From a plasmid, in the NCBI RefSeq assembly GCF_053078305.1, contig NZ_CP166875.1: a stretch of DNA of 64,000 nucleotides. One strand, given 5' to 3'. The notes under the pieces were generated by a model. That model was given only the letters and a program-made list of their open reading frames with translations. It had not been told where the DNA came from and searched no databases. Position numbers and translations under genes: made by a program. Shown one piece after another: positions 41,850 to 47,452 of the stretch (its first letter is position 1; each line of letters starts with the position of its first letter).

Positions 41850-42160
41850 GACTGTCCGGGGGCAGACCGCAAAAGTTTTTGCCTGCTTTTGGGCAAAAAG
41901 TTTTGCGGGATGTGCATTTCACCCCTGGACTGGCGGAGACGGTTGTGGCTGTCTTTGCCCCCGGCGACAGGGGCTTAAACAGGTGTATGGCACCGGACAC
42001 AACAACGGGCAGGGACCCGCCGCAACGACGAAGAGCGCGTGCGCGAAACGGCGTTGCCCCTTACATCCCGGCGGCCTTTTGCCGGGATGCCAGGAGCGCA
42101 GGCCACGGCGCGACAGAGGCGGCGCGACCGGAACGGTCGCTGCAAGCCCGGGGTTTCGCG
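41850..42160 (-). promoter_or_regulatory. Frpo/ssi-like structured single-strand promoter region, copy A
   Basis: GC-rich non-coding block sharing motifs (CTGTCCGGGGGC, GAGCGCAGGCCACGGCGCGACA, GTCGCTGCAAGCCCGG) with the region upstream of ssb. Confidence 0.5.
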
Positions 42161-42583
42161 TCAGGGATGGAAGCCCGCCAGGGCGGAGACAGCTTCGCTG
42201 GCTCCGTTCACGACAGCCCGCCCCGCCTGGGGGACGCCCGGAAAAGGCATAAGCAGGAGAACAACAAAACAGACAATAATCAGGGCAGCAGTAATCAGAG
42301 TCAGAACAGGAGGAAAAAGAGAATAATCAAAGGGAAGGTGATGTGATTTCCGACAGGTCATAAACAGAGAAGGCGGGGGAAAAGAACGGGCGCCGCAGGC
42401 GCGCGTTCATCCCCGTTCCCGGAGGGAATCGGCCTTCCTGGCAGTCTGGTTGTTCATGCTGCTGCAATGTCAGCAAGGAGAAAGGGGCCACCGGCGAACC
42501 AGCAGCCCCTTTATAAAGGCGCTTCAGTGCAGTCAGACCAGCATCAGCCCTGAAAAGGCGGGCCTGCGCCCGCCTCCAGGTTG

Positions 42584-42742
42584 CTACTTACCGGATTCGT
42601 AAGCCATGAAAGCCGCCACCTCCCTGTATCCGTCTCTGTAACGAATCTCGCACAGCGATTTTCGTGTCAGATAAGTAAATATCAACAGTGTGAGACACAC
42701 AATCAACACACACCAGACAAGAGAGCTGCGTGGTAGTTTCAT
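42584..42742 (-). CDS. hok: Hok type I toxin (flmA/hok-type)
   Basis: 52-aa peptide [52 protein letters not shown]; overlapping upstream leader ORF. Confidence 0.85.
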
Positions 42743-43016
42743 GGCCTTCTTCTCCTTGCGCAAAGCGCGGTAAGAGGCTATCCTGATGTTGTCAGACATA
42801 TGGGATGCCTCGTGGGTTAATGAAAAATTAACTACGGGGCTATCTTCTTTCTGCCACACAACACGGTAACAAACCACCTTCACGTCATGAGGCAGAAAGC
42901 CTCAAGCGCCGGGCACATCATAGCCCATATACCTGCACGCTGACCACACTCACTTTTCCTGAAAATAACCCGCTCATTCAGGCTGTTTACGGGTAATCTG
43001 TGTGATTGTTGCCGCA

Positions 43017-43736
43017 TCACGCCGCCTCCCGGAGTTTGTTCGGCACCATCCACCGCTCCATCTCACGGACAGCGTGACCCGCCTCCCTTGCTGCCATACC
43101 TGCCTCTGCGATGACCTGCCAGAATGGCATATCCTGCCACTGCCAGCGTTCCATCCCGGCCAGTGACGGAAAACGCTCACCCCACTGCCAGAACAGGGTT
43201 TCCAGGTCATGCTCTGCCACCCGGTCACTCCAGCGTGCATACCAGCTTCCGACTGTTTCCGGTGAATGGAACGCCAGTTCGATTTCAGCCTGAGCGACCA
43301 GCGTCTGGTACGCACGGGCTTTCTGCTCTGCCTCCCGTGCCTGCTGGCGGCTGTACTTCTGCATGACCAGCACGGATTTATGGCGACTGCGTTCCCTGAC
43401 ACGGAACCGCACCGACGGGAACAACCGCTCTGCTGCATCACCGGGAAGGGGAAGGAGGCAGACCTCGCCCTGTGTTTCAATCAGCACATCGACGGCATAC
43501 AGCCACTGAGAACGGTTGCCGCGCAGTTCTTCTGCGGTCAGGGACGGCATGAAAAATCGCAGGTCAGACAGCGAAATCCTGCGGCTTCCGTTCAGACAGC
43601 GGAAAAACGCCCCCGCATACGGATATTCCGCCAGCGTGTTACCCTGGTGGCGGCGTTTTTCTGTCTCCGCCACCGCCCGCCATGCGGCCTGTTGCTCTGT
43701 GCTGAGAGGAACCAGTGCCTGTGAACGTGCGCTCAT
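43017..43736 (-). CDS. psiA: PsiA
   Basis: 239 aa; position immediately after psiB as in F leading region. Confidence 0.88.
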
Positions 43737-44167
43737 GCCTGACCTCCTTCCGCCATCAGGATATGGATGATGTCACTGACGCTGTATCCCTGTTCATCCA
43801 GTGATGCCGCCAGTGCCAGTGAATGGCTGACAGCTTCCGGTGCAAACCGCCGCTGCACCTGAACCACCGCAAACGGCTCACCACCGGCATTCACCAGAAC
43901 CAGCACCCAGACCTGAGAGACATCGCCCGGTGAACATAACGCCAGGTGAAAACGTTCGTGGGCAGGCGTGAAACGGACCTGGACGGGGAAAAAGCCGCCG
44001 AACTCGCTGCCGTACTCGCCATTCATCGTCCAGTTGTCCGGCGCATCCAGTTCCCGCATCACGGCGTGTGTCAGCTCACGGCGTTCATCACTTCCGGCAG
44101 CCCGGATATCTTCATATTCCTGTGCGCTCATGGTCTGTAATACATTCAGGGTCAGTTCAGTTTTCAT
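43733..44167 (-). CDS. psiB: PsiB plasmid SOS inhibition protein
   Basis: Start at MKTELT preceded by gggaga; 144 aa. Confidence 0.9.
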
Positions 44168-44221
44168 CACGGTATCTCCCTTGCTGCCGCCCCGTCTCCG
44201 GCGGGGCGGTGTGGTTGTTCA

Positions 44222-46180: not shown

Positions 46181-46245
46181 AGTTAGTACCTCCCAAAACG
46201 GTAATAATGATTGTCTGCCGGACGCGTTCCCGTCCGGCACCTCTC

Positions 46246-46506
46246 TTACTTAAGAATGCCGAAATCCCTGATGACATGGTTCATCCAGTACCCGGCACCG
46301 TCCTCAAAATTCCAGGTACGCCAGACCATTGCACCGTTATTACGGACAACCAGGCGAAAATGTTCTCCGTTGTCATCCTCGATAAAGACGTTCCGGTACT
46401 GTGCGGCAACGGCTTCGGCATGTTTTCGGGTAAAAGGACCGTCCGGCAGTCCCTGAAGTATTCTGAAATATTCGCTCATCCTCATCTCTCCGGTGATGCC
46501 CCGCAC
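46246..46506 (-). CDS. hypothetical protein
   Basis: 86-aa ORF between ssb and the parB-like gene. Confidence 0.45.
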
Positions 46507-46536
46507 AGGACGGGGCGGTTGTCACAGTCAGGCCAG

Positions 46537-47064
46537 TCAGAACGGGATATCGTCTGAAAATCCGTAATCCTCCCCCTCCGGCGGCTGAGGCTGAGGCTCG
46601 GGCTGCGCGGCCTTACGTCCACGGCCTTTCGTTTTCGCGCCACTTTTTTTCGTCGCGTCAGCACTCTGTGGCTGCCCATTCTGCTGAGGCTGCGGTTGTG
46701 CCTGAGCGTTCTGCTGTGGTGCAATCCCCAGCATCTGCATGGTGCCCGTGGTCTTAACAAGAATTTCAGTGACGTAACGGGTGATACCGTTATCTTCCCA
46801 GCTACGGGTTCGGAGTTGCCCCTCGATATAGACCTGCGCGCCCTTGCGCAGATATTCACCAGCCACTTCCGCGAGCTTGCCGAACAGCACCACGCGGTGC
46901 CATTCCGTCTGCTCCCGCATCTCCCCCGTCTTTTTGTCGCGCCAGCTTTCTGATGTGGCCACCTGCAGGTTTGCCACTGCGCCCCCGTTGGGGATGTAAC
47001 GGACCTCCGGATCATTGCCCAGACGCCCGACGAGGATGACCTTGTTGATACCACGTGCACTCAT
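46537..47064 (-). CDS. ssb: plasmid single-stranded DNA-binding protein
   Basis: OB-fold N-domain, Gln/Pro-rich linker and acidic C-terminal DDIPF tail. Confidence 0.92.
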
Positions 47065-47227
47065 GAGAACCTCCTGACTGAAAGATGTGAGATAAACCGG
47101 ATACCGGAGACGGGACGTTCATATGCCCCTTCAGAGGAGCGAAAGCTCCTCCTGCCGTCCACTTCTTCGGGGTTTCTCCCCGCAGTGGACCTTTCCGATG
47201 GGGGCCCGTTTACCGCCTCACGGGACA

Positions 47228-47452
47228 GCTGTCCGGGGGCGGACGCAAAATTTTTTGCCGGGTTCATGGCTAAAAATTTTGTGGCCGGTATATCTTCCCC
47301 TGGACTGATGGAACGGGAGGTGGTTACGTCTGCCCCCCGGAAAGTCCACAGCGGGAAACAGGCCGCAGAGGTGGCGGCAGAAGAGGAGCGCAGGCCACGG
47401 CGCGACAAAGGCGGCGCGACCGTTCCGGTCGCTGCAAGCCCGGGTTTTCACG
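47228..47452 (-). promoter_or_regulatory. Frpo/ssi-like structured single-strand promoter region, copy B, upstream of ssb
   Basis: Homologous to 41850..42160; non-coding, GC-rich, hairpin-rich. Confidence 0.55.

Follow-up and report, generated by a model that had tools for sequence, protein, structure and literature searches.

The question raised by a 64,000-nucleotide (nt) stretch of plasmid DNA (NCBI RefSeq assembly GCF_053078305.1, contig NZ_CP166875.1; the whole stretch is called the window here, and all positions refer to it unless another record is named) is whether two related regions within it, at about 42 and 47 kb, with the genes ssb, yfjA, yfjB, psiB and psiA between them, are Frpo/ssi elements, that is, promoters that work in single-stranded DNA (ssDNA), and whether they could still do so where they now lie. 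An earlier note, made from the sequence alone, had described the pair as homologous, rich in guanine and cytosine (GC), hairpin-rich, non-coding and Frpo/ssi-like, and our analysis upholds that description. Judged by alignment and predicted structure, both regions are members of the class-1 ssDNA promoter family, which holds F Frpo (ssiD, equal to Frpo1 or ssp1a), F Frpo2 (ssp1b) and ColIb-P9 ssi1-3; the left region (copy A) is classed with F Frpo1 and the right one (copy B) with ColIb ssi3, and the two copies are thereby assigned to different lineages, an F type and a ColIb type. Taken as a whole, an explanation that joins class-1 membership, the mechanism described for the family and an inverted, probably silent context is in our judgement likely to be right.

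The assignment rests in the first place on comparison with known elements, for which five reference Frpo/ssi sequences were taken from Supplementary Table 2 of Samuel et al. 2024, together with the F plasmid record. In blastn searches, copy A (41715-42063) aligned with F ssiD (D90178), the F element characterised as Frpo, at 95.2% identity over the full length (351/351 nt), and the F Frpo1 region (F record 11440-12040, reverse complement) matched window 41703-42275 at 95.1%. Copy B (47131-47383) was closest to ColIb-P9 ssi3 (96.0%, 253/331 nt), followed by ssi2 (91.6%) and ssi1 (81.3%); ssi3 (AJ238399 11381-11711) has been placed in class 1 (PMC12672017). The matches of both copies to known elements all run in the + orientation of the window. 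Moreover, a covariance model built from nine known cores (F Frpo1, Frpo2, ColIb ssi1-3 and four plasmid homologues), from which both window copies had been excluded, recovered 41824-41961 with 151.3 bits (E 4e-32) and 47201-47336 with 133.4 bits (E 5e-28) on the + strand, and scored the same loci on the - strand at 47.6 bits (A) and 41.6 bits (B). The core delimited by GGGG and CCCC measures 137-138 nt in every member examined. The next best match of the model in the window reached 17 bits (E 0.14); as only these two loci are matched, the window has exactly two class-1 copies, and a third was found neither by blastn nor by the covariance model with its filters off. F ssiE had no blastn match in the window, and a 25-nt match at 51138-51162, inside the methylase gene, was set aside as chance. 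A search of genome contigs with the pattern TGTCCKGGGN{45,75}CCCTRGAC, which is a loose one, gave only chance matches in unrelated phyla. The element class itself is already known and very common: the survey by Samuel et al. put the number of Frpo homologues at 13,089, spread over 6,006 elements (PMC11541004), and in PLSDB, from which our relatives were drawn, copy A-like sequence occurs in at least 5000 records, often in 2-9 copies per plasmid. In this respect the pair described here is ordinary.

Structure prediction points the same way, as each copy folds as one long imperfect hairpin of the kind expected for the family. Folded as ssDNA, the + strand of copy A (41703-42075) has a minimum free energy of -102.5 kcal/mol (z -7.9 against shuffled sequences) and that of copy B (47120-47400) one of -83.8 kcal/mol (z -8.6). 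The - strands also fold (z -6.2 for copy A; -73.4 kcal/mol and z -6.5 for copy B), 8-10 kcal/mol worse than the + strands. When 17 A-type relatives were aligned (their sources being F, four further plasmids, and Serratia and insect-metagenome candidates from the literature), the consensus hairpin comprised 87 pairs, with 97.6% of cells paired versus 39-49% when the partners are slid by 1-3 columns; compensatory double changes were observed in nine pairs versus 0-3 in the slid controls, and none of 500 shuffles reached the observed values. The mismatches speak to the strand: among stem oppositions of the two window copies, G·T occurs 10 times versus once for A·C, and A/G 16 times versus twice for C/T, an asymmetry expected if the + strand is the one selected to fold, which marks it as the folded strand. 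The genes downstream, ssb at copy B and a truncated gene at copy A, both directly to the left on the - strand, have this folded strand as their template. The limits of the two regions in the earlier note (41850-42160 and 47228-47452) picked out the right loci and were too narrow, since 41850 and 47228 fall inside the 5' arms, most of each arm being missed (Table 1).

The homology between the two copies resides in two collinear blocks, recovered by pairwise alignment and by a repeat search: 42092-42160 with 47384-47452 (69 nt, 91.3%, E 9e-23) and 41852-41942 with 47229-47316 (91 nt, 75.8%, E 9e-10), E values being calculated against the whole window. The GC content is 62-65% in both regions versus 50.7% for the window. 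The 69-nt block, the best conserved between the copies, sits outside the promoter hairpin, 3' of that of copy A on the + strand; both F Frpo regions contain it as well, and ColIb ssi3 contains part of it. It holds a small hairpin (GCGACCG-GAA/TTC-CGGTCGC), the fold of 42060-42280 having a z of -2.5.

How such elements work has been described in the literature on the family, from which the promoter activity of both window copies is predicted. Deletion of Frpo1 or Frpo2 abolishes early expression in transconjugants (PMC9849209), a Frpo2-acrIIA4 cassette works only on the leading transferred strand (T-strand) and loses its function on the complement (PMC11541004), and the transcription start sites of ssi1-3 have been mapped by 5' rapid amplification of cDNA ends (PMC12672017). 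Following this model, the + strand of the window, once single-stranded, would fold over some 250-320 nt into the long imperfect hairpin, whose stem would mimic a duplex promoter; the host sigma-70 RNA polymerase would bind there and copy into RNA the 5' arm of the hairpin itself as well as the adjoining template. This transcript would run leftwards, in the sense of the - strand, into ssb-yfjA-yfjB-psiB-psiA from copy B and into the now-truncated gene from copy A, and it could also prime complementary-strand synthesis, while conversion to duplex DNA would remove the hairpin and switch the promoter off. As to the promoter boxes, we infer that the promoter is probably read from tip to base on the 3' arm, in which case the UP element would be the AT-rich tip, the -35 box TGGACT, and the pre-melted -10 the conserved internal loop 17 nt beyond it. 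The start of transcription would then be close to the GGGG/CCCC clamp, its template partner falling near 41824 in copy A and near 47201 in copy B, giving leaders of about 135 nt. This reading of the 3' arm is favoured because every A- and B-type core retains TGGAC(A/T), and because the AT-rich tip stem (41896-41910 in copy A) falls where an UP element would be expected, matching the order UP, -35, -10 given by Samuel et al. (PMC11541004). In addition, the 3' arm of their working Frpo2-acrIIA4 cassette ends at GGCGACAGGGAC; a cassette ending there loses the partner of TTGAGA, the alternative -35, and keeps the whole segment from TGGACA to the loop, which also favours the 3'-arm reading.

Several observations weigh against parts of this proposal. 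The -10 candidates, CTGTCT and TTACGT, match TATAAT poorly, and a mirror-image candidate, TTGAGA-17-CATCAC (41805-41833), which is read along the 5' arm in the direction of the tip, flanks the same internal loop, so that the assignment of the boxes is insecure; in F Frpo2, furthermore, TGGACA is shifted by 3 nt. The UP-element reading is weakened by relatives without the AT-rich tip, which is absent in pSA20021456.1 copy b and in two insect-metagenome copies and enlarged in Serratia. Indeed, the tip (alignment columns ~165-236) is the most variable part of the hairpin and the basal stem is nearly invariant, including an invariant TTGAC at 41750-41754, which is hard to reconcile with the tip as an essential UP element. 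Copy B, moreover, lacks about 53 nt of ssi3: in pairwise alignment the gap falls at 47375-47390, against ssi3 positions ~250-307, and the missing part corresponds to two small hairpins 3' of the main stem (CTGCGCC-ATCA-GGCGCAG and CACACC-GTCA-GGTGTG). This deletion seems uncommon, since every one of the best matches in PLSDB is split into two aligned segments and has ~53-63 additional bases.

Two other readings would dispense with an ssDNA promoter altogether. If the regions were ordinary double-stranded regulatory DNA, with conventional promoters and long 5' untranslated regions whose hairpins act as RNA, the 5' arm beside each start codon would be leader RNA, and this arm is in fact the most conserved part of the family; the folding of the - strand, noted above, would also fit. 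However, promoter scans found no linear sigma-70 consensus on either strand of either copy, the excess of G·T and A·G oppositions points to the + (template) strand and not to the RNA-sense strand, the covariance model scores the + strand about 100 bits above the - strand, and the published deletions and strand swaps support activity as ssDNA (PMC9849209, PMC11541004); we consider this reading very improbable. That the regions encode small proteins, as some public annotations have it, we find scarcely credible. Open reading frames (ORFs) of 90-198 amino acids (aa) do overlap both copies, and coding sequences (CDS) are annotated over the homologous copies in pCombat2C1-1 (7643-7849, 9120-9392 and 14574-14780) as a 68-aa 'hypothetical protein' and a 90-aa 'single-stranded DNA-binding protein'. 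Yet none of the five overlapping ORFs, including 41645-41917, the equivalent of an annotated CDS, matches any NCBIfam family even at E<=1, and variation among relatives preserves pairing and not the reading frame, with insertions or deletions of 1-3 nt tolerated. The public CDS calls over Frpo copies look spurious, and recognising Frpo/ssi elements prevents such ORF annotation over them.

The two class-1 copies lie in a region (40.4 to 52.6 kb) whose genes are all encoded on the - strand, and copy B sits directly upstream of ssb, as had been stated (Table 1). The SSB protein is identical to that of ColIb-P9 at 169/176 aa (96%) and to that of F at 157/180 (87%), whereas yfjA, yfjB and psiB share 95.8-97.8% identity with the F proteins (tblastn). 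The similarities form a mosaic within the block. Sequence of ColIb type makes up copy B and ssb and returns at 49080-56000 (96%), and the DNA running from copy A through yfjA resembles F (95.5%); promoter and ssb seem to move together as one module. Beyond copy B lie three small genes, including klcA/yfgB (48425-48847), and then a DNA methylase gene (50580-51260). On the other side, copy A had been said to abut an IS66 remnant by which its downstream gene may have been displaced. The gene was indeed hit by IS66, whose end lies at ~41526 and whose tnpC was removed by the Tn3-family element; 165 nt of the gene remain, and it is truncated and not wholly displaced. Its full-length homologue lies at 8843-9166 in pCombat2C1-1, whose homology with the window begins at 41526; the same 107-aa gene follows an identical Frpo copy in pCombat2C1-1 and pF95-3, and is intact in pF95-3. 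At the far end of the block, an umuD/umuC-like (imp) operon (53207-54918) was observed on the + strand, opposite to the leading-type genes, which recalls umu-like operons reported to flank anti-defence islands.

Table 1. Positions of the two copies, their predicted parts and the surrounding genes in the window.
Feature	Position	Strand	Basis or remark
Copy A, full repeat unit, homologous to F Frpo1 (ssiD/ssp1a) region	41703-42275	+	blastn
Copy A, main imperfect hairpin	41732-42049	+	5' arm 41732-~41886, tip loop ~41887-41894, 3' arm to 42049
Copy A, predicted core promoter module, GGGG...CCCC, 138 nt	41824-41961	+	covariance model
Copy A, candidate hairpin promoter, 3' arm	41926-41954	+	-35-like TGGACT 41926-41931, 17-nt spacer, putative -10 position CTGTCT 41949-41954 at conserved internal loop
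Copy B, repeat unit, ColIb-P9 ssi3 type	47131-47452	+	blastn
Copy B, main imperfect hairpin	47146-47388	+	ssDNA fold; tip loop ~47258-47265
Copy B, predicted core promoter module	47201-47336	+	covariance model
Copy B, candidate hairpin promoter, 3' arm		+	putative -35 TGGACT 47301-47306, putative -10 position TTACGT 47324-47329
Truncated gene downstream of copy A	41527-41691	-	first 55 codons of WP_000533253.1 homologue (107 aa)
hok/sok (flm), between the two copies	42740-42911	-	Rfam RF01794 sok, 87.2 bits
psiA	43017-43736	-	ORF and 'plasmid SOS inhibition protein A' annotation in aligned region of related plasmids
psiB	43733-44170	-	tblastn with F proteins
yfjB, parB-like	44222-46240	-	tblastn with F proteins
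yfjA	46249-46479	-	tblastn with F proteins
Plasmid ssb, first gene downstream of copy B	46537-47064	-	NCBIfam PRK13732, 3.6e-115; start codon 47064
IS66-family remnant	40449-41526	-	tnpA 40796-41473 (NCBIfam TnpA 1e-88), tnpB 40449-40796 (TnpB 5e-38)
Tn3-family resolvase and transposase	36363-40139		transposase 37101-40139 by NCBIfam
TraD	18604-20802	+	
TraI	20802-26072	+	
FinO	27325-27882	+	
IncFII RepA	31184-32053	+	

We then considered whether the two promoters can act in this plasmid, looking at their orientation relative to the tra genes. The earlier note had spoken of a leading-region block, and the genes are of leading-region type, but the block is not in a leading position within the window: ssb-psiB-psiA-hok, on the - strand, is convergent with tra and adjoins the RepFII/finO/traX side, behind the Tn3-family element and the IS66 remnant. 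In F, pCombat2C1-1, pKP169-P2, pSA20021456.1 and pF95-3, tra and the leading genes are co-oriented, the reverse of the window, and oriT is found in these plasmids on the far side of the block's ygeA-ygeB end. In the window, neither oriT nor a match to the F-type nic site was found, and ygeA and ygeB are absent from the block (tblastn with F proteins). The right-hand segment also occurs in p_STEC435_1, a related plasmid, where it is turned round and has the normal orientation relative to tra; an identical plasmid was not found in PLSDB or among complete E. coli genomes.

F-type transfer moves the strand that serves as template for the tra genes and for the leading genes alike. As the block is convergent with tra, lies near RepFII and has no nic match, the hairpin-forming + strand is probably not the transferred strand, which for F-type transfer would here, to go by gene orientation, probably be the - strand. 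The two hairpin promoters are then probably not exposed in active form in recipients, and may no longer work in this plasmid. Family members may also be recognised by a leading-region position with the folded strand transferred; this is not what is found here, which bears on present activity and not on homology. Early expression in the recipient, which the earlier note had attached to these elements, is general for the family in the literature and probably fails for this plasmid's own F-type transfer, because the block is not in a leading position and is inverted relative to tra. The arrangement points to an inversion or to ectopic capture brought about by IS66 or the Tn3-family element; both promoters would then be relics of that event. 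Counting against this argument, oriT and traM lie outside the window, and it thus rests on the assumption that the position and orientation of oriT, upstream of traM, are the usual ones, with no second oriT serving the block.

If that assumption were wrong, both copies could be fully functional zygotic promoters as in F, with the + strand transferred and ssb, psiB and psiA induced on entry. Both cores have been preserved intact, with model scores on a par with those of characterised members, and the ssb operon that follows copy B is likewise complete; since the right part of the window is ColIb/IncI1-like, the replicon may also carry a second oriT, of IncI type, elsewhere. We regard this as unlikely, since tra and the block are convergent, unlike in the five reference plasmids, the oriT needed could be placed only to the left of copy A, in a stretch that holds just IS66, the Tn3-family element, RepFII, finO and traX-traI and gives no nic-site match, and the published cassette loses its function on the T-strand complement (PMC11541004). 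It is distinctly improbable that the complements of the hairpins, which would lie on the transferred strand, act as weak mirror-image ssDNA promoters or primer sites, for which their folding (z -6.2 and -6.5) and their 42-48 bits against the family model may be adduced. If they were active, transcription would lead away from ssb/psiB and enter hok-psiA and the klcA side in antisense, complementary-strand synthesis would be primed late in transfer, and the plasmid would be a natural test of Frpo strand specificity. The explanation we prefer, two class-1 elements in a module inverted relative to tra, predicts instead a loss of zygotic induction. Overall, Frpo/ssi elements matter for the burst of anti-SOS, SSB and anti-restriction expression before the duplex forms, which helps resistance plasmids to establish in new hosts; known biology is not extended by the present pair, and what is mildly useful in it is the heterologous pairing and the inverted module.

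Comparison with known systems helps to place these features. Class-2 promoters (ssp2) lie upstream of klcA/yfgB and ardA, and class-3 promoters (ssp3) upstream of an M.EcoGIX-type methylase. They resemble copies A and B in being hairpin promoters on the transferred strand within the same gene block, but have no sequence homology to them, and the covariance model gives no match. The presence of class-2 and class-3 promoters in the window may be proposed only by homology to F: the region upstream of klcA/yfgB (ArdB-like) at 48848-49093 (48852-49089) shares 95% identity with the part of F in which ssp2 is reported to lie, and has a closing stem of about 19 bp, GGCGGGGATGCAAGGG...CCCTTGCATCCCCGCC. 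This region folds no better than shuffled sequences (z -0.05), and the region upstream of the methylase operon gives no folding-energy signal (z -0.4).

Within class 1, F Frpo is said to have been treated by Masai and Arai in 1997 and by Couturier et al. in 2023, and ColIb-P9 ssi3, reportedly, by Bates et al. in 1999 and Nasim et al. in 2004. Copy A resembles F Frpo1 in its 95% identity over the whole element, its orientation, the long hairpin and the 137-138-nt core; however, Frpo1 drives ygeA-ygeB beside oriT in F, whereas here, as in pCombat2C1-1, the element precedes another small gene, in the window cut by IS66 after 55 codons, and the block is inverted relative to tra. Copy B shares with ColIb-P9 ssi3 96% identity over 253 nt, the position upstream of a ColIb-type ssb, the hairpin and the core, and differs from it by the missing ~53 nt and by the flanking yfjA, yfjB and psiB, which are F-like (96-98% at the aa level). 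Its position upstream of ssb-yfjA-yfjB-psiB-psiA is that of F Frpo2; homology between the two, however, is confined to the tip-proximal core (81 nt, 79%) and the 69-nt block. The layout as a whole is that of F, with two copies ~5.3 kb apart, hok/sok between them and one copy directly upstream of ssb; but the two copies of F are 92% alike, and those of the window only 76-91% in two short blocks, so that this heterologous pair offers much less homology for recombination between the copies than the pair in F.

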